Shown here piece by piece: positions 5,316-36,517 of a DNA stretch of 64,000 nucleotides. The stretch is from Bacillota bacterium (GTDB lineage: Bacteria > Bacillota > UBA5301). A program made the translations under genes and the position numbers. Position 1 is the first letter of the stretch. Each line of letters begins with the position of its first letter. The stretch is from contig JACDOJ010000007.1 of NCBI GenBank assembly GCA_017656135.1, forward strand, positions 975 to 64,974, given 5' to 3'. The notes below the pieces were generated by a model. It did no database searches, was not told where the DNA came from, and saw only the letters and a program-made list of their open reading frames with translations.

Positions 5316-6592
5316 CCCTGACCGAAAAGATCCTGGCTGCCCACGCCGGTAAAGAGCGAGTGGAACCGGGAGAACTAGTAAACTGCCGGGTGGATCTGGT
5401 CTTAGGCAATGACATCACCGCCCCTGTAGCTATAGAGGAGTTTTCCAAAATCGGCGTCAAGGAGGTCTTTGACCGGGACCGGGTTGTCCTGGTCCCCGAT
5501 CACTTCGTACCGAACAAAGACATCAAATCAGCCGAACAGGCCAAAGTACTCCGGGACTTCGCCCGGGCGCAAAACCTGACCTACCGCTTTGACGTGGGCA
5601 CCATGGGGATTGAGCACTGCCTCCTGCCGGAAGCAGGCCTGGTGGGACCAGGGGATCTGGTGGTAGGAGCCGACTCCCACACCTGTACCTACGGGGCTCT
5701 CGGCGCCTTTTCCACCGGGGTCGGCAGCACTGACCTGGCTGCAGCCATGGCCACCGGCGAAGTCTGGTTCAAAGTTCCCCAGACCAGCAAGTTTACCTAC
5801 CACGGGAAACTGCAACCCTGGGTGAGCGGAAAAGACCTCATCCTCTACACCATTGGCGAGATCGGAGTCGACGGTGCCCTCTACCAGTCCATGGAGTTCT
5901 CCGGAGAGGCCATAGCCCGGCTCTCTATGGATTCCCGGTTTACCATGGCCAATATGGCCATCGAGGCCGGAGCCAAAAACGGAATCTTCCCGGTGGATGA
6001 GATAACCGAGAGCTACATCGCCCACCGGCTGAAACGCTCATATAAAGTGTACCGCCCTGATCCGGATGCCACCTACGCCGCCGAGTACGACTTCAACGTA
6101 GAAGAAATTGAGCCTCAGGTGGCTTTTCCCCACCTACCGGAAAATACCAAGGGCATCAGCGAAGCCGCCGGAGTGGTCATCGACCAGGTAGTCATCGGGT
6201 CCTGTACCAACGGGCGGTTAGAAGACTTGAGGGTAGCTGCCAGCATCCTCAAAGGCCGGAAGGTTCATCCTGAGGTCCGGCTCATTGTCATCCCTGGGAC
6301 CCAGCAGATTTACCTCGATGCCCTTAAAGAGGGGATCATCGAAGTGTTGATCCAGGCCGGTGCCGCCGTTTCCACCCCCACCTGCGGTCCCTGTTTAGGT
6401 GGACACATGGGGATTCTGGCCAAGGGCGAGAGAGCTCTGGCTACCACCAACCGCAACTTCGTCGGCCGGATGGGACATCCGGAATCAGAGGTCTATCTGG
6501 CCGGCCCCGCCATCGCTGCCGCCAGCAGCGTCCTGGGCCGGATCGCAAGCCCCGTCGAGCTGGGTCTGAAGGAGGTATCCACTGTAGCATGA
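5306..6592 (+). CDS. leuC: 3-isopropylmalate dehydratase large subunit (short type)
   Basis: Aconitase-family motifs (GSCTNGR, CGPCLG). 428 aa. Overlaps leuA. Confidence 0.9.
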
Positions 6593-7089
6593 AACTGACT
6601 GGACGAGTTTGGAAATTCGGCGACAACATCGACACCGATGTCATCATCCCTGCGCGCTACTTGAACTCAGCCGATCCGGCCAACCTGGCCGCCCACTGCC
6701 TGGAGGACGCAGATCCGGATTTCCCCAGCAAAGTTCAAGCGGGAGATATCATCGTCGCCGGCAAGAACTTTGGCTGCGGCAGTTCCCGGGAACACGCCCC
6801 GCTGGCCTTGAAGGCAGCAGGAGTAGCCTGTGTCATCGCTCCAACTTTCGCCCGGATTTTCTACCGGAACGCCATCAACATCGGCCTCCCGATTTTGGAG
6901 TGCCCGGAGGCTGCTCGAACCATCCAAGAAGGAGACAAAATAAGCGTGGATTTAGAAACCGGTACTATCACCCACACTGCCACAGGCAGTACCTGGCAGG
7001 CCAAACCTTTCCCATCCTTCATGCAAGAGCTGATTGGCGCCGGCGGCCTCATTGCCTACACCCGAAAGAAGGTGACCGGGCATGCCTAA
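6589..7089 (+). CDS. leuD: 3-isopropylmalate dehydratase small subunit
   Basis: 166 aa aconitase swivel domain; overlaps leuC stop. Confidence 0.9.
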
Positions 7090-8185
7090 GATCGCCCTCC
7101 TACCCGGTGACGGCATTGGAAAAGAAGTGGTGCGCGAAGCGGTCAAGATTCTATTAGCCGTCGGCAAGCGCTATAACCTAGATTTTGTCTTTGAAGAAGG
7201 GCTTATTGGGGGCTCTGCTTATGATGCCACCTCTTCCCCTCTTCCTCCGAAAACCATCGACCTCTGCCTTGGGGCTGATGCCGTACTTTTAGGGGCGGTG
7301 GGAGGCCCCAAGTGGGACGATCTTCCGGGAAACTTGCGGCCTGAAGCAGGCCTTTTGGGAATCCGCAAGGCCCTGGGCCTCTACGCCAATCTCCGGCCGG
7401 CCCGGGTGTTTCCCGGCTTGACTGGGGCTTCTCCCCTGAAAGAAAAGGTGGTTTCCGGAATCGATATCCTGGTGATCAGGGAACTCACCGGAGGAATCTA
7501 CTTCGGCGAGCCCCGGGGACGGGAAAAGCTGGTTTCAGGGGGAACCAAAGCCTATGACACCATGGTCTACACCACCGAGGAGGTCCGACGCATCGCCGAG
7601 CTGGCCTTCGAAATCGCGGCAAAACGCTGCGGCCGGGTGACCTCGGTGGACAAAGCCAATGTCTTGGAATCCTCCAGGCTCTGGCGGGAGGTGGTCCGCC
7701 AGGTGCACCAGAGATATCCTGACGTGGTCCTCACCGAAATGTATGTGGATAATTGCGCCATGCAGCTGGTCAGAGATCCGGGTCAGTTCGACGTTATTTT
7801 AACCACCAACCTCTTCGGGGATATCCTCAGCGATGAGGCGGCCATGCTCACCGGCTCTTTGGGTATGCTGCCTTCAGCCAGCCTAGGCGGCAGTGTCGGG
7901 CTGTATGAGCCTGTACACGGCTCAGCCCCGGATATCGCCGGAGAGAACAAGGCCAATCCTCTGGCCACCATCCTCTCAGCGGCCATGCTGCTCCGCTATT
8001 CCCTAGGACTCCATCAGGAGGCCCAGGCCATCGAAGACGCGGTAGAAGCCGCTCTCCTGGCCGGGTACCGCACTTTAGATATCGCCGCCGGCTCCTGTCA
8101 GGTAGTTAGCACTTCCCAAATGGGGGATCTGGTGGCGGGCTTCATCCGCCAGGGCAGCCAGCCTGGCAAGGCAGGTGCTCTCTGA
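7082..8185 (+). CDS. leuB: 3-isopropylmalate dehydrogenase
   Basis: Isocitrate/isopropylmalate dehydrogenase family motifs ([25 protein letters not shown]). Confidence 0.9.
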
Positions 8186-28231: not shown

Positions 28232-29413
28232 ATGGAAATGAGGATCATCGGTCATGTAGATATGGATGCCTTCTTCGCCGCCATCGAACAGCGGGACAAC
28301 CCAGCCCTGCGTGGGAAACCGGTAATCATCGGCGGTTTGAAGCACAGTCCCCGAGGTGTCGTTTCCACCTGTTCCTACGAAGCTCGCAAGTACGGCGTCC
28401 ATTCAGCCATGCCCATCTCCAAGGCTGTTGAACTCTGCCCCCACGGGATTTTCCTCCCAGGAAACATGGAGAAGTACCGGCAGGTTTCTGAAGAGTTACA
28501 GAGGATCTTTGCCAGCTTCACTTCCCTGTACGAGCCGGTTTCCATCGATGAAGCCTACCTGGACTTAACCGAAACCTATAAGAAGTATTCCTCCCTGTGG
28601 GAACTGGGCCGGGCCATTAAGGACAAAATCAGAGGCGAGCTGGGCTTGACTGCTTCCGTAGGGATAGCCACCACCAAATCAGCGGCTAAGATCGCTTCTG
28701 ATCTGGAGAAACCCGATGGTTTGACCATCGTGCTCCCCAGTGACTTTGACCGGATAATCGGCTCTCTGCCGGTGGGGAAACTGCACGGAGTCGGCAAAAA
28801 GACGGCTGAGCGCCTGGAGAAGATGGGCATCAAGACCATCATCGATATCCGTAAAGTCGGCCGCAAGGCGATGGTCAGCACCTTTGGGAAGCACGGGGAC
28901 TGGATCTACAACCTGGCTTGGGGGATAGACCCCCGCCTGGTGGAAAAGGAGCACACTAGAAAGTCGATAGGCCGGGAAACCACCTTCCCCCGGGACACTG
29001 CCGATCCTGAAGTGGTGATTAAGGCTCTAGATGAACTCTGCGCTGATGTTGCCAACCGCCTCCAAAAAAGAGGACTCTGGGGGGAAGCTATCACCCTGAA
29101 GCTGAGAACAGCCGACTTTCGGACAACGACCCACACTCTTACCCTTAAGCGCCCGGTGGCGGCCAAAGAAGACCTCAGCGAGGGAGCTTTGCTCCTACTC
29201 AAAAAACACTGGTGCCGAAATGAGTCAGGCCATGCCCCGGCCTTGCGCCTGGTGGGGGTCTCTGTCTCCGACCTTACAGACGTCAAGCAGATGAACCTCT
29301 TCGAATCCCACCCCTTGACCAAAATAGACTTACTCCTGGCCGACCTTAACAAGAAGTTCGGACCAGGAGTAGTTACCACTGGCAATATTGAGAGTTGTGA
29401 GGAGAAAGATTAG
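28232..29413 (+). CDS. dinB: DNA polymerase IV (Y-family translesion polymerase)
   Basis: N-terminal HVDMDAFFAAIEQRDNP; conserved SIDEAYLD; about 393 aa. Confidence 0.9.
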   Translation: MEMRIIGHVDMDAFFAAIEQRDNPALRGKPVIIGGLKHSPRGVVSTCSYEARKYGVHSAMPISKAVELCPHGIFLPGNMEKYRQVSEELQRIFASFTSLYEPVSIDEAYLDLTETYKKYSSLWELGRAIKDKIRGELGLTASVGIATTKSAAKIASDLEKPDGLTIVLPSDFDRIIGSLPVGKLHGVGKKTAERLEKMGIKTIIDIRKVGRKAMVSTFGKHGDWIYNLAWGIDPRLVEKEHTRKSIGRETTFPRDTADPEVVIKALDELCADVANRLQKRGLWGEAITLKLRTADFRTTTHTLTLKRPVAAKEDLSEGALLLLKKHWCRNESGHAPALRLVGVSVSDLTDVKQMNLFESHPLTKIDLLLADLNKKFGPGVVTTGNIESCEEKD

Positions 29414-29637
29414 TCGGGATTCTCGCTCTGCAGGTACGGAAGCATATCCTTGTCGATGGTAGTCACATCTTCTTCGTCTACTTCAATCATTCCCCGGTCT
29501 CGCAGCTGGATGACTACATCATATAAGGATTTTCGCTGCTCCTCCGGGAGGCTCATAACGTACTCATTGATCTCGGATTCAGGAACCTTGGCATAAACTT
29601 TGACGCCGCCGAATTTCAAGTACTTGCCTTTGTCCAT
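29410..29637 (-). CDS. Small hypothetical protein
   Basis: 75-aa ORF from an internal ATG with GGAGGT RBS; acidic C-terminus. Confidence 0.35.
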   Translation of the reverse strand: MDKGKYLKFGGVKVYAKVPESEINEYVMSLPEEQRKSLYDVVIQLRDRGMIEVDEEDVTTIDKDMLPYLQSENPD

Positions 29638-29662
29638 GGGCATACCTCCGGAATTGGGATTA

Positions 29663-30238
29663 TCAACAGGATTCCCGAAAAGATGCCAATGTATGATGCC
29701 CGGCAAGCCTCTGGCCTACAGCCACGAAGAAAATCGACTTCAGGATGTCCCCAGGCAGGAAAATGAGAAACCCGGTTTTGAGCAACGTCAGAAAAGGCAC
29801 CGGAGTCCCGGCGAAAAAGCGGAGCGAAATGTAGAGGTACGGCAGACCGATGGCGTAGATAACCAGATGGGCTAAAATCGCTACCCCCAAGAGTTTCTTC
29901 TTCTCCGCTTTTTGCTGGGGATGGAAACTGCGCCCAATCAACCAGGCCGCCGGGATGAAACCCAAGAGATAGCCGAAGCTGGGTTTAAAAAGATAAGAAA
30001 GGCCTCCCCCAGCTGTGAAAACCGGCAAGCCCATAAGTCCTAAAAGAATGTAGACGATTTGGCTCGCCGCTCCCAGCCAAGGCCCTAAGACGAGCCCAGA
30101 AAGGAGCACCACCAGAGACTGAAGGCTGATGGCCACCGGCGGAATCGGAATCCGGACAAAAGCAGCTACAGACATCAAAGCGGCCATAACTCCTACCAAA
30201 ACTAACTTGCGGGTAACCAGATTACTCTTTAGACTCAA
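29663..30238 (-). CDS. bioY: Biotin transporter BioY (ECF S-component)
   Basis: BioY-family polytopic membrane protein. Overlaps the 3' end of the BirA-domain gene. Start codon uncertain (TTG at 30238 or ATG at 30187). Confidence 0.75.
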   Translation of the reverse strand: MSLKSNLVTRKLVLVGVMAALMSVAAFVRIPIPPVAISLQSLVVLLSGLVLGPWLGAASQIVYILLGLMGLPVFTAGGGLSYLFKPSFGYLLGFIPAAWLIGRSFHPQQKAEKKKLLGVAILAHLVIYAIGLPYLYISLRFFAGTPVPFLTLLKTGFLIFLPGDILKSIFFVAVGQRLAGHHTLASFRESC

Positions 30239-31532
30239 CTATACTCACCTCTTCTGCGAAAACTTCCTTGATTCTTCCATCATCCCTCTGAATCATCAGG
30301 CTGCCTGAAGGGGTGATCTCCACGGCCACTCCGGAGAAACTCTCCGCTCCAAGCACCCGGACCCGCCGGCCTAAGGTGCAGGAAAGCTCCTCATACTCAG
30401 AAACCATCCTGGCTAGACCGTGTTTAAGATAATCCTGATAGAGGGCGGTCAACTCCAAAAGATAGCTCCGGAACAAGGCCTGACGACTTACCCGCTTATC
30501 CCAGGCCAAGTAGAGGGAGGAAATCTCCTTATCCAAATCAGGCAGTTCATCTTGCTGCTGGTGGACGTTGATTCCTGTTCCTAGGACAACATAAGACAGC
30601 TTTTCTCCTTGAATCCCTGATTCAGCCAGACAGCCGGCAACTTTGGCTCCACCGATTAACAGGTCATTTGGCCACTTGATTTTAGCCTTATCGGCCCCCC
30701 GGGGTGCGAAACCGTTGACAGCCTTGGCCAGGGCCAGAGCTCCAAGGATGTTGAGGCTGGGTACAAAGTAGGGCTTGATGCCGGGCCTTAAGAGCACACT
30801 ACACCAAATGCCGGCAAAAGGCCGGGAGACCCAGCTCCGGCCGGATCTACCCTTGCCCTTCCACTGGGTTTCCGCAACCACCGTAGTGCCCTCCGGAGCG
30901 CCCTCCAAAGCCAGTTCGCGGAGTTCATCGTTGGTTGAGCCTACCTCCAGTTTGTAGATCAGGGGATGACCCAACTCCTCCGGATCTAACCCAGCCAGGA
31001 CAACACTGGGATAGAGCCGGTCCAGGTCAGCTTCTCCCTCCGCCGGAGTATAGATTCGCACCCCTTCGGCGGCTGGATCAAACTTAGCAGCCAGCTCCCT
31101 GACCCTTACCCCGCTGGGAGTTGCAAGCTCCGGTGCCAGCTCAGCCAAGGGGATGAGCACAAAAGCCCGCTCCCACATCCGAGGATGAGGGATGGTAAGA
31201 TCTTCGGTCTTGATAGATTCATCATCATAGAGCAATATATCAATATCCACCGCCCGGGGACCCCAGCGAATCCGGCGGTCCCGACCGTAGTAATCTTCGA
31301 TTCTCCTGGTCTGATTCTTGAAGTCAGCAGGAGAGAGGCCGGTTTTCACCTTTACCACCTGGTTCAGGTAGTCCCTCTGCCCAGTGACCCCCATCGGCCG
31401 GGTCTCGTAGTAGCTGGAGGTCGCCTCCACGCTGGTCTCCGGCAGCTCAGCCAAAAAAACCAAGGCTCCTGCCAGGTTTTTGGCCCGGTTTCCGATGTTG
31501 CTGCCGAGAGATAAGAACACCTCATGTTTCAT
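30222..31532 (-). CDS. Fusion of 6-hydroxymethyl-7,8-dihydropterin pyrophosphokinase (HPPK/FolK) and biotin-[acetyl-CoA-carboxylase] ligase BirA (group I, no HTH)
   Basis: N-terminal approx. 160 aa carry HPPK motifs (LSLGSNIGNR, RWGPRAVDIDILLYDD, PHPRMWERAFVL). C-terminal approx. 240 aa are the BPL catalytic domain (GKGRSGRSW, KWPNDLL) plus the C-terminal SH3-like domain. Single uninterrupted ORF. Confidence 0.75.
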   Translation of the reverse strand: MKHEVFLSLGSNIGNRAKNLAGALVFLAELPETSVEATSSYYETRPMGVTGQRDYLNQVVKVKTGLSPADFKNQTRRIEDYYGRDRRIRWGPRAVDIDILLYDDESIKTEDLTIPHPRMWERAFVLIPLAELAPELATPSGVRVRELAAKFDPAAEGVRIYTPAEGEADLDRLYPSVVLAGLDPEELGHPLIYKLEVGSTNDELRELALEGAPEGTTVVAETQWKGKGRSGRSWVSRPFAGIWCSVLLRPGIKPYFVPSLNILGALALAKAVNGFAPRGADKAKIKWPNDLLIGGAKVAGCLAESGIQGEKLSYVVLGTGINVHQQQDELPDLDKEISSLYLAWDKRVSRQALFRSYLLELTALYQDYLKHGLARMVSEYEELSCTLGRRVRVLGAESFSGVAVEITPSGSLMIQRDDGRIKEVFAEEVSIVESKE

Positions 31533-31894
31533 TCTCCCGCCTCCTTGCTGACTTCGATCTCAACATAGTCCAGAGGGGCGCCCAACGGTGCAGCCGGCTT
31601 ACGGACCCGCACGGTAACCCTGCAGAGTGGAAAACTTGCTAGAAGCCCATCTGCTATGGCTCCAGCCAAGGTCTCCATTAAATTATACCTCTTCTCCGTC
31701 ACAATTCCCTTGATGACCTGATAGACCTCGGCGTAGTTCACCGCTTTCGCGATGTCGTCATCGCATCCGGAAGCCTCCTTTTTAGGGAGGTATTCCACAT
31801 CCACCTCAAAACGTTGGCCCAACTCTTTTTCGGCGGGGAAAACACCGTGGTAGGCGTAGAAGACCATGTTCTGTAACCTGACTTTAAGACTCAT
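31529..31894 (-). CDS. folB: Dihydroneopterin aldolase
   Basis: MSLKVRLQNMVFYAYHGVFPAEKELGQRFEVDV typical of FolB. ATGA coupling to the downstream ORF. Confidence 0.8.
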   Translation of the reverse strand: MSLKVRLQNMVFYAYHGVFPAEKELGQRFEVDVEYLPKKEASGCDDDIAKAVNYAEVYQVIKGIVTEKRYNLMETLAGAIADGLLASFPLCRVTVRVRKPAAPLGAPLDYVEIEVSKEAGE

Positions 31895-33116
31895 CCTGCC
31901 CACTCCTTTGGTAGCGGGCAATGGCATCGGAGACCTTGGCCACCCTGGCCATTTCCCGGACATCATGAACCCGGACCACGTCGGCACCGGCGGCGATGCC
32001 CAATGCCACACTGGCCGCCGTTCCTTCCACCCGCTGGTCCACCGGCAAATCCAGCACTTTACCGATAAAGGACTTGCGGGAAGTCCCTAAGAGAAGAGGA
32101 TAACCCAGCGTCCGAAACTCTGCCAAACGGTTTAAAATCTCCAAGTTGTGCTCGCAAGTCTTAGCGAAACCGATTCCGGGATCCAGGATGATCTGCTCCC
32201 TGGAAACACCTCTGGCCAAAGCCTGGTCGACAGCGCTCTGGAGAAAGGATAAAACCTCTGCGACCACATCGGTGTAGACCGGATTTTTCTGCATCTCCCT
32301 GGGAGTTCCCCTGGTGTGCATCAGAACCAACCCGGCCCGGTATTTAGCAGCCAAGTCCGCCAGGCGAGGTTCGAACTGCAAGCCGCTGATATCATTGATG
32401 ATGCTCGCACCAGCCTCCAGGGAAGCCTCCGCTACCCGGTACTTGGTGGTGTCCACGGAAATCGGCACCGCGAGCTCCTTAGCCAATTGGCTGACAACAG
32501 GTATTACCCGGGCCAGCTCGTCCTCCTCAGAAACAAACTCGGCCCCAGGCCGGGTTGACTCTCCCCCTACATCGATGATGTCCGCTCCCTCGTCCACCAT
32601 TTGACGAGCTCTCCTGATGGCTGCTTCCGGCTCCAGGTACCGGCCTCCATCGGAGAAGGAATCGGGAGTGACATTTAAAATACCCATGATGTAGGTCTTC
32701 TGCCCCAGCGGGAGGCTGTACTCTCTGCACTGCCAATGTCCGCTTCGCGGAGCCAGCAGGGGCTCTACAGCCTCCTGCAGCTCCTTAGCAACCTGTTTGA
32801 GGCCAAAAGGTTGACGGGCCAGCTTCTCAGCCAAACCTAAGAGCTGTTTAGCAGTGCCTGAAAGGAGCACATCCACCTGCTCGGCAGCTAGAGCCGCTGC
32901 TTCCCTAGGGAGGGCGGCCTCACCACCTAAGGAGAGCATCTCCTGCTTGATGATGAGAGCCCCCCGCAGGCTGACCCTGGAGAGAGCAAGGACGTACTGA
33001 CAGAACTTAAGCTCCATAGCCTCCACACCCTGAGGATCAGCTCCCAGTTTGGTTAGAAGATCTCTGGCATAAGCCCTATTTTTAACTGTGATGACTCTGA
33101 CATTGTGTCGGGGCAC
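31884..33116 (-). CDS. folP: Dihydropteroate synthase with approx. 140-aa N-terminal extension
   Basis: DHPS motifs GILNVTPDSFSDGG, DVGGESTRPG and LLGTSRKSFIG. Start placed at the GTG at 33116 (GGGGGG RBS); the upstream ORF portion overlaps ftsH. Confidence 0.7.
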   Translation of the reverse strand: MPRHNVRVITVKNRAYARDLLTKLGADPQGVEAMELKFCQYVLALSRVSLRGALIIKQEMLSLGGEAALPREAAALAAEQVDVLLSGTAKQLLGLAEKLARQPFGLKQVAKELQEAVEPLLAPRSGHWQCREYSLPLGQKTYIMGILNVTPDSFSDGGRYLEPEAAIRRARQMVDEGADIIDVGGESTRPGAEFVSEEDELARVIPVVSQLAKELAVPISVDTTKYRVAEASLEAGASIINDISGLQFEPRLADLAAKYRAGLVLMHTRGTPREMQKNPVYTDVVAEVLSFLQSAVDQALARGVSREQIILDPGIGFAKTCEHNLEILNRLAEFRTLGYPLLLGTSRKSFIGKVLDLPVDQRVEGTAASVALGIAAGADVVRVHDVREMARVAKVSDAIARYQRSGQDES

Positions 33117-33180
33117 GGAAATCCCCCCATATATGAAAGAAGCACCCTGGGCGAGTGCTTCCCGTAGGTAGCCGTCTTGG

Positions 33181-35040
33181 TTATTCTTCTTTCTTCTCCT
33201 GCTCTTCTTTCTTTTCCTGTTCTTTTTCGGAAGGCGCCTTCTCAAGGGGCTTCCCCTGGATTACCGCCTCAAATTCGTCTTTCCTCAGTGTTTCTTTTTC
33301 CAGGAGGGCTTGCACCACTCGTTCCAGTTCCTCTCGGTGCTCTTTTAGCAGCTTGGTGGCTTTTTCGTAGGATCTTTCGATGATCGCTCTGGTTTCAGCG
33401 TCGATCTTGGCCGCCACCTCTTCACTGTAGTTGCGATCCCGAGAGATATCCCGGCCCAAAAAGACCTGCTCTTCATGGCCGTGTCCAAAAGTCATCGGGC
33501 CCAGTTCCTCACTCATGCCGTATTCGGTGATCATCTTCCGGGCCAGTTTGGTAGCCCGTTCGATATCATTCTGAGCGCCGGTACTGACCTCATTGAAGAC
33601 CATTTCTTCGGCAGCCCGGCCGCCCAGGGCGTAAGCCAAGTAATCCAAGAGCTCTGACTTGGTAGTCACGTATTTGTCTTCAATAGGCAAAACCATGGTG
33701 TAACCGCCGGCCATTCCTCGGGAAATGATGCTCACCTTGTGGACAGGGTCCATGTGATCCAGGAACCGGGCAACCACAGCATGACCGGCTTCGTGGTAGG
33801 CAAAGACCTTTTTATCCCGCTCGCTAATGACCCGTTTTTTGCGTTCCGGGCCCATGAGCACCCGGTCGATGGCTGCCTCGGCCTCTTCCATGGTAATGCG
33901 CTTTTTGTTCTTACGGGCAGCCAAGATAGCAGCTTCGTTCATCAGGTTCTCCAGATCGGCCCCAGTGAAACCCGGTGTCCGCCTGGCCAGAACTTGCAGG
34001 TCGACATCTTCTGCCAGAGGTTTGTTCCGGGCGTGAATCTTGAGGATCTCCACCCGTCCTTCCACATCCGGCTTATCCACAACCACCTGCCGGTCGAAAC
34101 GCCCCGGTCTCAACAGGGCCGGGTCTAAGACGTCCGGTCGGTTGGTAGCTGCTAAAATGATGATGCCGCTGTTAGGCTCAAAACCGTCCATCTCCACCAA
34201 GAGTTGGTTGAGGGTCTGTTCCCTTTCATCGTGGCCGCCGCCTAAGCCGGCACCACGCTGACGCCCGACAGCATCAATCTCGTCCACAAAGACGATACAG
34301 GGGGCGTTCTTCTTGGCGTTCTCGAACATATCCCGAACTCTGGCGGCACCGACACCGACGAACATCTCCACAAAGTCAGAACCACTGACCGAGAAGAAAG
34401 GGACTCCGGCCTCACCGGCCACAGCCCTGGCCAGCAGGGTCTTACCGGTACCGGGTGGGCCCACAAGCAGGATGCCTTTGGGAATCTTGGCCCCAAGCTC
34501 CACAAAGCGCTTAGGGTGTTTCAAGAACTCTACAATCTCAGCCAGCTCCTGCTTGGCCTCGTCTAAGCCGGCTACATCATCGAAAGTGACCTTGACCTTG
34601 TCCTCTGTGTGCAGCTTAGCTCGAGACCTCCCAAAGGACATGGCCCGGTTGCCGCCGCCCTGCATCTGGTTGAGGATGAAGAGCCAGATGCCGATGAAAA
34701 TGACCAGGGTAATAACGTTGGGAAGAATCGACATCCACCACGGTGGGGTAGGCTGAGGTTTGGCTGCCACCGCCACGCCTCGTTCCTCCAAGAAGGCCAC
34801 TAGATCCGGAGTTTGCGGAGGCACAGTGGTAAAAAAGGTCTCCCCGTCCTGGTACTCTCCTTGAACCTGCTGGCTGCCGATGAAAGTAACTGATTTAACC
34901 TTGCCTGCATTAACCTGTTGGATAAACTCAGAGTAACTGATTTCGTTAACCTCAGGCTTGGTATAAATACTGCTAACCACGGAGATGGCCAGCACTGCCA
35001 GGAGCAAATACAGGCTAATCCCGCGTAGGAATTTATTCAA
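33181..35040 (-). CDS. ftsH: ATP-dependent zinc metalloprotease FtsH
   Basis: Two N-terminal TM segments. AAA motifs GPPGTGKT and DEIDA. HEAGH zinc site. Confidence 0.95.
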
Positions 35041-35068: not shown

Positions 35069-36517
35069 CTAAAAAATTATATCATACGGGCTTTCTTGTG
35101 GCAACTCTTCCAGTTTTAGCTGCAAAATTTGTCTAGTTTTGTCCGTTATTCTGCCGCTTTCGCCTTGTCGCAAGCCCGCAACCCAAATTATGCCACTTCT
35201 ATCTAGGACTAACGGTATACTCTCCCTTCTACCTGGGGAAACCTTCTCATCGATAAAGAAATCTTTTAACTTCTTGCTGCCACCGAGACCAAAGGGGTGG
35301 AAAATATCCCCGGGCCGCCTGGTCCTGACCGTCAGAGGAAGGTCGATTTCAGCTAAGTCGAAGAAGGCACAGGTGGAATCAGGACAGTCTTCTTTTGCCC
35401 TGAGGCTCGCCAACTTGTCCAGTCCTCCCTGGTGCACCGTAGCGGTAATGCGGAGGCCCAAAGAGGAGATTGTTAACTCTCCTGGCACCTCTAACTGCCA
35501 GACTTCAGCCGACTTCCTCTCTAGTTGCGAGCTGCGTTTGCCGGCGGTCAATACTGCCTGCCGGTATTCTTTGATTAAAGTAGCCCCAGGTAGATCCACT
35601 TGGAGGTTGCTCTCATCTCTCTCTAAAAGGTCAAGGGCCTCTTCCACATGGCTAAAACTTAAAACCTTTCCGGTTAACTGAAAGTGGGCCGCTCGGATAA
35701 TTCGTCTCTTCAAGGCCAAGGGTTCTGCCTGAAAAAGTTCCAAGGGGAAACGGCAGCTCTTCCGGGAGCAGACGGCGTTTTTCTTTAACCAAAAGTCGAT
35801 GACCTGATTCAGGTACTCTTCCTCCGCCCGCATGATCTCAGCGTGCCGGGCCAAGGCTTCTTCTACCTTGGGGTTAAACTCGGCTTCCAATAAGGGAACG
35901 AGCTGCAGGCGAATTTTGTTCCTTAGGTAAACCGGCTTCTCGTTGGAAGGATCGATTCGATACGGCAGGTTATGGCTGGCGGCGTAGGCCAAAACCTCTC
36001 GTCTAGATACCCAAATTAACGGACGGATGTACTCATCCTCCCGAACCGGGGGAATTCCGGACAGGCCCGAACTGCCCCCTCCGGTCAAAAGGCGCATCAA
36101 AACCGTCTCCGCCTGGTCAGTCTGGGTGTGGGCCAGTGCAATACGCTGGGCGCCCCACCTGGCAGCAGCCTCTTTCAAAAAGGCGTACCTGATCCGCCTG
36201 GCCGCCTCCTGTTTAGACTCACCGGGACACCTCAGGCGGGAGACCTCCCGGGCATCACTGATACAAGGAAGTCCCTTCTCTTTGGCCCAGGCCTCGACGA
36301 AGGCCCGGTCTTCAGCGCTTTCCTCACCCCGAAACATATGGTCCAAATGGGCCAGACATAAAAATAACCGAACCTCCCTGCTGAGGCGCAAAAGAAGGTC
36401 GGCTAAAACCATAGAGTCCGGGCCGCCGGATACGGCTACCAACACCCGGTCCACTCCCTGGGGCAGCATCTTATAAGTGAAGATAGTACGCTTGACTTTA
36501 TCTAACAAATCGGGCAT
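35069..36517 (-). CDS. tilS: tRNA(Ile)-lysidine synthetase
   Basis: PP-loop SGGPDS; approx. 480 aa with C-terminal TilS domain. Confidence 0.9.
   Translation of the reverse strand: MPDLLDKVKRTIFTYKMLPQGVDRVLVAVSGGPDSMVLADLLLRLSREVRLFLCLAHLDHMFRGEESAEDRAFVEAWAKEKGLPCISDAREVSRLRCPGESKQEAARRIRYAFLKEAAARWGAQRIALAHTQTDQAETVLMRLLTGGGSSGLSGIPPVREDEYIRPLIWVSRREVLAYAASHNLPYRIDPSNEKPVYLRNKIRLQLVPLLEAEFNPKVEEALARHAEIMRAEEEYLNQVIDFWLKKNAVCSRKSCRFPLELFQAEPLALKRRIIRAAHFQLTGKVLSFSHVEEALDLLERDESNLQVDLPGATLIKEYRQAVLTAGKRSSQLERKSAEVWQLEVPGELTISSLGLRITATVHQGGLDKLASLRAKEDCPDSTCAFFDLAEIDLPLTVRTRRPGDIFHPFGLGGSKKLKDFFIDEKVSPGRRESIPLVLDRSGIIWVAGLRQGESGRITDKTRQILQLKLEELPQESPYDIIF

Follow-up and report, generated by a model that had tools for sequence, protein, structure and literature searches.

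Can a folate enzyme and a biotin enzyme be encoded as one polypeptide, or does an open reading frame (ORF) that joins them reflect two adjacent genes whose separating stop codon has been lost? The question is raised by a 64,000-nucleotide stretch of DNA from a Bacillota bacterium (GTDB lineage UBA5301; assembly GCA_017656135.1, contig JACDOJ010000007.1, positions 975 to 64,974 of the forward strand), hereafter the window, in which a single minus-strand ORF joins the pterin pyrophosphokinase HPPK (FolK; EC 2.7.6.3) to a biotin protein ligase (BPL, BirA). An earlier note on this DNA, made from the sequence alone, had described a continuous ORF at 30222-31532 with the motifs LSLGSNIGNR, DIDILLYDD and PHPRMWERAFVL in its HPPK part and GKGRSGRSW in its ligase part, all of which are found in the translation. 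The same note had considered a genuine folate–biotin bifunctional fusion, and this is supported by at least 58 fused proteins, by the conservation of both catalytic sites and by a linker that evolves as coding sequence. The fusion is most likely two ordinary enzymes joined by the merger of neighbouring genes.

Domain content and catalytic residues

Both families are found in the ORF above the curated cut-offs of Pfam and NCBIfam, as had been claimed from the motifs. The Pfam HPPK model (PF01288) is matched over its entire length (profile positions 1-116 of 116; E = 4.9e-38; 130.5 bits against a cut-off of 25.7), and so is the NCBIfam folK model TIGR01498 (model positions 1-128 of 128; 139.9 bits against 54.1). 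Further along the protein, BPL_LplA_LipB (PF03099) is matched at residues 199-322 (E = 3.5e-15; 56.5 bits against 21), BPL_C (PF02237) at residues 386-424 (E = 3.4e-5; 24.1 bits against 21), and the NCBIfam birA_ligase model TIGR00121 at residues 193-430 (model positions 4-233 of 235; 154.6 bits against 83.1). The ligase motifs GKGRSGRSW and KWPND lie at residues 226-234 and 286-290, respectively, and no helix-turn-helix (HTH) family of Pfam matches the window fusion at E <= 0.01. The linker between the two domains, put at ~40 amino acids in the earlier note, is shorter, with HPPK homology and predicted structure extending to residue ~157-161 and BirA homology beginning at ~172.

The catalytic residues were followed through 58 fused proteins, which were assembled for an alignment (A3) and set a lower bound on the members of this architecture. 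Residues 6-147 of the HPPK half align to residues 4-146 of E. coli HPPK (1dy3), such that R84, R93, D96, D98, H116, R122, F124 and N57 correspond to E. coli R82, R92, D95, D97, H115, R121, F123 and N55, respectively, which we take to be the Mg2+-binding Asp pair together with ATP- and pterin-binding residues. All of these positions are invariant in 58/58 fusions. In the ligase half, R229, R232, D290 and K297 correspond to R48, R51, D104 and K111 of the P. horikoshii BPL, the residues mutated in its solved-structure series; R48 and R51 belong to its GRGRxGRxW biotin/ATP loop, D104 to KWPND, and K111 is the catalytic Lys. Invariance in 58/58 fusions is also seen for G226, G228, R229, D290 and K297, and R232 and the remaining KWPND positions are conserved in at least 90 % of the 58, in an alignment whose mean column identity is only 26 %. 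Judged from these sequences, both halves look catalytically competent.

An AlphaFold2 model of the fusion, built from a 27-sequence alignment, has a mean predicted local distance difference test score (pLDDT) of 89 and a predicted template modelling score (pTM) of 0.79, with pLDDT values of 71-78 in the linker. The ligase half superposes on 1wnl in Foldseek with a target-normalised template modelling (TM) score of 0.91 and a root mean square deviation of 2.2 Å. No solved chain with both HPPK and BPL was found, the best query-normalised TM score being 0.55.

In one clade of the fusions, the HPPK domain contains low-complexity inserts rich in Gly, Ala, Asp and Arg (P0014, P0018, P0021, P0026, L012:6001-6560 and L013:6001-6800). 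These inserts lie between the DIDILLY strand and the PHPRMW motif, where canonical HPPK has ~10 residues, and reach up to ~140 amino acids in L013.

Recurrence, ligase ancestry and origin

A search for the same fusion in related genomes, proposed earlier as a check, found it in many independent assemblies. In a word-indexed protein search, PF01288 and PF03099 occurred together in ~30 other clusters, which cover 75-99 % of the query at 34-67 % identity. When 1.84 billion representatives (50 % clustering) were searched exhaustively with a profile, more than 45,000 matches had E <= 1e-30; ~37 representatives match the profile end to end, and the rest of the top 150 match by the ligase half only. 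The 58 assembled proteins, which are 30-67 % identical, all contain HPPK and BPL_LplA_LipB by Pfam (58/58), and BPL_C was found in 46 of them. The five closest relatives (64-67 % identity, 433-436 amino acids) are all fused and have a linker identical in length to that of the window, and their sources are independent assemblies (Logan SRR31940690 and SRR11356281; UBA5301; AS09scLD_310). Dozens of more distant fused proteins were found at 30-43 % identity. The architecture is rare, and its carriers are confined to uncultured spore-forming Firmicutes. A scan of a genome collection with a single protein was exact-peptide based, far from exhaustive and dominated by standalone folK of Bacillaceae. 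One candidate for a fusion in a cultured species, Thermoanaerobacter thermocopriae (L061), taken up on a tblastn match reaching query residue 221, was rejected as a standalone 166-aa folK followed by queD.

The linker was compared with the two domains in its mode of evolution. In the informative pair of fusions L009 and L010 (93 % amino-acid identity; synonymous divergence, dS, 0.4-0.8), the ratio of nonsynonymous to synonymous substitution rates (dN/dS, Nei-Gojobori) is 0.09 for HPPK, 0.04 for the linker and 0.03 for the ligase. Among more distant pairs, the proportion of nonsynonymous differences (pN) in the linker is not above that of the domains. Because the linker dN/dS of ~0.04 reflects purifying selection in the fusion frame, the junction is translated and constrained. 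The length of the linker differs among the fusion clades. The opposite picture, in which homologs are universally separate and birA has an internal start, is not what is seen: the close relatives are fused, and the window linker contains no well-spaced combination of a Shine-Dalgarno (SD) sequence and a start codon.

The L009 and L010 sequences are two contigs of the metagenome-assembled genome (MAG) Firmicutes bacterium UBA5301 with one fusion copy each, which may mean either that the bin combines two populations or that the locus is duplicated.

The ligase had been assigned to group I, which it resembles only through the missing HTH. By its sequence it descends from group II BirAs, which is a statement of ancestry and not of membership. 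Among unfused proteins, the ligase half is matched best by HTH_11-containing group II BirAs at 39-45 % identity (Moorella, Thermincola, Symbiobacterium, Anaerotignum), and homology to these proteins starts at their residue ~58, profile residue ~170. The connector DRLYPSVVLAGL aligns with PDRLYPxxxxAGL of the unfused group II BirAs. In alignment A2, the window sequence DLDRLYPSVVLAGL...LG..IY..VGSTN takes the place of the group II post-HTH connector, e.g., PDRLYPGEITAGL of Thermincola BirA, and true group I proteins begin at the connector position. Since the retained connector aligns with the group II post-HTH connector, HPPK replaces the winged HTH (wHTH) precisely. Furthermore, an HTH_11 domain stands between HPPK and BPL in 7 of the 58 fusions (P0012, P0013, P0123-P0126 and one more; 506-526 amino acids), and these HPPK–HTH–BPL proteins are plausible intermediates.

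Unfused relatives show a similar set of genes. In Moorella glycerini (L091, PVXL01000004.1), the order is folK-(three pantothenate genes)-birA(II)-bioY-DUF1284-coaX-dus, and a neighbourhood of this type has apparently been compacted in the fusion-bearing lineages. In a Firmicutes MAG, the unfused order is tilS-ftsH-folB-(htrA)-birA(II)-bioY. Because unfused relatives keep fol genes and birA–bioY in the tilS–ftsH neighbourhood, the likeliest origin of the fusion is a merger of neighbouring genes. The three genes after folK in Moorella glycerini are a DUF2520/ketopantoate-reductase-like gene, panC and panD, and this locus is a cofactor-gene island. For Thermincola BirA (P0036), a gene encoding exactly this protein was looked up and none is on record.

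In two GTDB species-representative MAGs, L012 (Bacillota AS02xzSISU_21; 5998-7560) and L013 (Bacillota MAG-64; 5998-7803), the linker contains one in-frame TAG, which splits the gene. An SD sequence (GGAGGAGG) is present in the linker, an ATG follows two codons after the TAG, and both species share the conserved junction GGAGGAGGC[A/G]TGTAGCGCGGCATG. Their close relatives P0018 and P0021 are fused, and the split form probably arose by secondary fission or else represents the state immediately before fusion. Interconversion of the fused and split states thus occurs at shallow depth, an argument that neither activity depends on covalent linkage. A stop codon lost between two adjacent genes, the alternative raised in the earlier note, is wrong as an account of an artefact but probably right as evolutionary history, because unfused relatives share the neighbourhood and two species are split by an in-frame stop.

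Gene neighbourhood in the window and in relatives

The features of the locus are listed in Table 1. The fusion had been placed between folB and bioY, and indeed folP and folB lie upstream and bioY downstream on the same strand, in the wider order spoIIE-tilS-ftsH-folP-folB-[fusion]-bioY-small ORF, with dinB convergent. The TGA of folB overlaps the fusion ATG as ATGA, and a GGAGG is located 7 nt upstream of that ATG. At the other end, the maximal ORF of bioY overlaps the last 17 nt of the fusion, an overlap also present in the relatives L001 and L002. No promoter or terminator signals above chance were found inside the fusion, and ftsH is the probable first gene of a transcription unit that includes it. 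Near the operon no riboswitch or other RNA was found in an Rfam scan, whose only matches, a lysine riboswitch and a tRNA, lie at the window's far end.

Table 1. Features of the folK–birA locus and other annotated sites (coordinates in the window)
Feature	Coordinates	Strand	Details
folK–birA fusion ORF	30222..31532	minus	436 codons, no internal stop; ATG 31530-31532, TAA 30222-30224
HPPK (FolK) domain, residues 1-157	31062..31532	minus	PF01288 residues 6-134, TIGR01498 residues 5-134
Inter-domain linker, residues ~158-172 (VRIYTPAEGEADLD region)	31017..31061	minus	matches neither family model
Group II-type post-HTH connector (DRLYPSVVLAGL) and BPL catalytic domain, residues ~173-372	30417..31016	minus	A2 alignment; TIGR00121
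BPL C-terminal (SH3-like) domain, residues ~373-436	30225..30416	minus	PF02237; aligns to end of P. horikoshii BPL
folB (dihydroneopterin aldolase)	31529..31894	minus	PF02152 and TIGR00525 above cut-offs
folP (dihydropteroate synthase), maximal ORF	31884..33245	minus	PF00809 residues 187-427; TIGR01496 350 bits
bioY (S component of the energy-coupling factor (ECF) biotin transporter), maximal ORF	29663..30238	minus	PF02632 BioY, E 2.7e-40
ftsH	33181..35040	minus	Pfam FtsH_ext, AAA, Peptidase_M41
Promoter-like site upstream of ftsH	35076..35104	minus	TTGCCA-17-TATAAT, 11/12 matches, TG extension; consensus match only
Lysine riboswitch (131 bits) and tRNA	591-773 and 117-201	plus	Rfam; unrelated to fusion

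Among the relatives, the fusion directly follows folB in 9/9 cases, and folP precedes folB in 8/9; the fusion therefore occupies the folK slot of the operon. In P0005, the order tilS-ftsH-folP-folB-fusion-bioY-x-dinB is identical to that of the window, and P0007, P0009 and P0011 show spoIIE-tilS-ftsH-(isochorismatase)-folP-folB-fusion-...-x-dinB without bioY. The fusion is preceded by hut/FTCD genes-folP-folB in P0026 and P0019, by folE-folP-folB in P0028, and by tilS-ftsH-pepP-folB in P0013, in which folP was not called on that contig. The genes after the fusion vary among relatives.

The order spoIIE-tilS-ftsH-folP-folB-fusion-...-dinB was also observed in L089 (GCA_050260635.1, labelled Betaproteobacteria) and L090 (GCA_050260095.1, labelled Chitinophagales). 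The window has the same synteny, one that typifies sporulating Firmicutes, and the NCBI taxon labels of both genomes look wrong.

Two further observations concern the genes around the fusion. The folP ORF of the window has an N-terminal extension of ~140-180 amino acids before the Pterin_bind domain (32685-33245, minus strand), and its N-terminal 187 amino acids have no Pfam match. Extended FolP proteins of 403-451 amino acids are encoded in several fusion-bearing relatives (L001:4422-5648, L005:4375-5586, L006:4285-5640), and FolP without the extension (279-292 amino acids) is found in L007 and L008. The Lys/Arg-rich start of the maximal folP ORF (33181-33245) shares 65 nt with the 3' end of ftsH, read in a different frame; translation of folP probably begins further downstream, and in L001 ~60 nt separate ftsH from folP. 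Downstream of the fusion and bioY, a small acidic ORF of ~75-85 amino acids without Pfam match (29410-29706, minus strand) likely starts in the window at an internal Met (MPMDKGKY). It is also present in four relatives (L001:7888-8121, L005:7339-7596, L089:9319-9576, L090:10105-10356). Its identity falls from 84 % in the closest relative to 21-24 % in the next clade, and in L090 a minus-strand gene for a tetratricopeptide repeat (TPR) protein lies between the small ORF and the fusion.

Interpretation and comparison with known systems

We consider it quite probable that the locus produces one polypeptide of ~48 kDa with two independent, competent enzymes, derived from folK joined to a group II birA. 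The HPPK half would convert 6-hydroxymethyl-7,8-dihydropterin and ATP to the pterin diphosphate and AMP, the folate step between FolB and FolP. The BPL half would form biotinoyl-5'-AMP from biotin and ATP and then transfer biotin onto a lysine of the biotin carboxyl carrier protein (BCCP), using biotin imported by co-expressed BioY. A deletion or read-through may have joined folK to the group II birA in spore-forming Bacillota, downstream of tilS-ftsH, and the window lineage would have lost the winged HTH and kept the post-HTH connector. With the HTH gone, BirA-mediated repression of bioY or bio genes would therefore not be possible in this lineage. folK, birA and bioY would be expressed with ftsH-folP-folB from a common transcript, with translational coupling at both ends of the fusion (probably so for bioY). 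Metabolic channelling is not implied, and the fusion is probably functionally additive.

Several points weigh against this account. The exact protein of the window (P0001) is known from a single NCBI MAG contig in the word-indexed search. Every carrier of the fusion is an uncultured MAG or a 'Candidatus' genome, among them a closed 2.57-Mb 'Candidatus' genome with CAB1130015.1, and most are labelled as Bacillota, Firmicutes or Clostridia. The search for a second copy covered the 64-kb window, and further folK or birA genes are possible elsewhere in the genome. No birA was found within 6 kb of standalone folK in any of 73 loci (0/73), a sample biased to Bacillaceae, and direct folK-birA adjacency as the common ancestral state was rejected on this count and replaced by a shared neighbourhood. 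Neighbor-joining (NJ) trees of the ligase half (200 bootstraps, Fitch counting) require 10-19 changes between fused and unfused states, against ~44 with shuffled labels, so that a single origin with vertical descent is not established. In these trees the nearest neighbour is fused for 45 of 52 fused proteins. The fused state is thus clustered and not demonstrably monophyletic, the NJ trees being too weak to count events, and multiple fusions, multiple fissions or poor tree resolution are possible.

One other explanation is that HPPK plays a structural or regulatory part for the ligase, either by replacing the wing domain or by coupling biotinylation to pterin/ATP status, which would make the fusion a functional folate–biotin link. 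Such a role would fit the position of HPPK exactly at the former wHTH place, upstream of the retained connector, and the persistence of the fusion across deep divergence, as well as the AlphaFold2 model, whose pTM is fairly high for a multi-domain chain and whose linker is predicted at the pLDDT given above. It would also fit E. coli BirA, whose full ligase function needs the N-terminal domain. The fusions themselves argue otherwise, as the linker length varies widely among clades, low-complexity inserts are tolerated and close relatives function with split halves. Furthermore, Henke and Cronan (2014; PMC4016012) showed that the Firmicute group II BirA of B. subtilis keeps full ligase activity when its DNA-binding HTH is deleted, and that E. 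coli BirA is unlike it in this respect. Loss of the HTH would therefore be tolerable in the Firmicute lineage. Catalysis alone explains the conservation of HPPK, because the catalytic residues are invariant and the gene is in the folK slot, and on balance a part of HPPK in ligase function is unlikely. Slightly less likely still is a specific form of it, in which the occupancy of HPPK by ATP or pterin would tune biotinoyl-AMP synthesis and, in the HPPK-HTH-BPL relatives, could also tune operator binding. If true, such tuning would directly link, at the molecular level, the supply of folate (one-carbon, C1) and of biotin (carboxylation) cofactors in anaerobic Bacillota.

There is also a small chance, no greater than that of a structural part for HPPK, that the ligase is made mainly or additionally from a start inside the linker, with the long product being minor. 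The SD sequence and ATG after the TAG of L012 and L013 would be in line with such a start, as would the purine-rich, GGAGG-like strings of the window linker. In the window, however, the in-frame GTG and TTG codons of the linker lie only 0-2 nt past these strings, too close for a functional SD, and there is no in-frame ATG. The protein-level constraint on the linker equals that on the domains, a constraint that a simple intercistronic region would not need.

An assembly or sequencing artefact, in which a missed stop or frameshift in a MAG contig joined a separate folK and birA, could be suspected from the metagenomic source, from the single contig on which the exact protein is known and from the in-frame split versions. 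It is nevertheless highly improbable and effectively refuted, because the fusion recurs as uninterrupted ORFs of 433-436 amino acids with identical linker length in independent assemblies at 64-67 % identity, and in dozens at 30-43 %, and because the linker, which offers no well-spaced SD and start, is under purifying selection in the fusion frame. Just as improbable is that one half is a decayed passenger or scaffold whose real enzyme is encoded elsewhere in the genome, as might be thought from the BPL_C match barely above its cut-off and from the limits of the second-copy search: the mapped catalytic residues of both halves are conserved in 58 sequences of low overall identity, dN/dS is 0.03-0.09 for both halves, full-length equivalog-domain models score at 2-3 times their cut-offs, and tblastn finds no second HPPK or BPL within the 64-kb window.

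The reading as one polypeptide with two competent enzymes bears on annotation. The architecture had been thought not to be commonly annotated, and this holds, as there is no NCBIfam model for an HPPK–BPL bifunctional protein and the source names give one function only: "biotin--[acetyl-CoA-carboxylase] ligase", "BirA family repressor/ligase" or "putative HPPK" (P0268 and P0132 in JGI; P0001, P0007, P0009 and P0011 in NCBI; P0291 in UniRef). Because of such one-activity names, folK or birA will be wrongly reported as missing in metabolic reconstructions of these uncultured Bacillota, and for the HTH-less forms a biotin repressor will be wrongly inferred. The name 'BirA family biotin operon repressor' is given to some HTH-less forms and is unsupported by their domain content. 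No natural HPPK–BPL fusion was found described in the literature searched, of which the coverage was incomplete and in which the matches concern BirA as a tagging tool; the fusion is apparently undescribed, and domain databases may well list this architecture without remarking on it. In kind, the fusion holds no surprise, and it opens no long-standing question. HPPK-HTH-BPL, HPPK-BPL and the one-stop split form make up a natural series with which the contribution of the group II N-terminal domain could be examined. The fusion is also a caution for 'Rosetta-stone' inference, being best explained by gene proximity and not by pathway coupling.

Among known systems, group II BirA (B. subtilis, Moorella, Thermincola) shares with the ligase half the GxGRxGRxW and KWPND motifs, the catalytic Lys and the C-terminal domain. 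The connector (PDRLYP..AGL) and the downstream bioY partner are also kept by the window fusion, whereas the N-terminal winged HTH of group II is replaced by a complete HPPK. The NCBIfam models for bifunctional BirA (PRK11886) score only 69-118 bits against the window fusion, with cut-offs of 293-489. Since the HTH is absent and these models are far below their cut-offs, no repressor function is expected.

Fusion of a BPL to an unrelated, ATP-using kinase of a cofactor pathway has a precedent in BirA/CoaX of the Bordetella type (NCBIfam NF009862, PRK13325). Its partner is a type III pantothenate kinase at the C-terminal end, whereas the partner in the window is HPPK at the N-terminal end, and NF009862 reaches 67.6 bits against a cut-off of 761, matching the ligase part only (model positions 83-322 of 592). 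A likeness to the BirA/CoaX pairing is seen in Moorella, where birA and coaX share a neighbourhood.

HPPK is often joined to its fol-operon neighbours, as in FolB-FolK (S. pneumoniae SulD, 2cg8), HPPK joined to dihydropteroate synthase (DHPS) (Francisella 3mcm/4pzv; 7mpy) and FolB-HPPK-DHPS (yeast FOL1, 2bmb). The HPPK half of the window aligns to the HPPK modules of these proteins, and HPPK-fusion chains in the PDB match residues 2-190 of the query only. These known fusions join consecutive steps of one pathway, whereas the partner in the window belongs to the unrelated biotin system. In the multifunctional folate enzymes HPPK is joined to FolB or DHPS, whereas folB and folP of the window are separate ORFs with their own stops.

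Group I BPLs (P. horikoshii, M. tuberculosis, Aquifex) lack a DNA-binding domain, as does the window fusion. They are stand-alone proteins of ~235-270 amino acids, whereas the window ligase carries a 157-aa N-terminal enzyme and a linker and is of group II descent. The window fusion thus fails the defining feature of group II, having no HTH, and that of group I, having an N-terminal domain. The most fitting description is that of a new architectural variant of BPL and of HPPK, which adds an architecture to a BPL classification comprising group I, group II, eukaryotic and BirA-CoaX forms.

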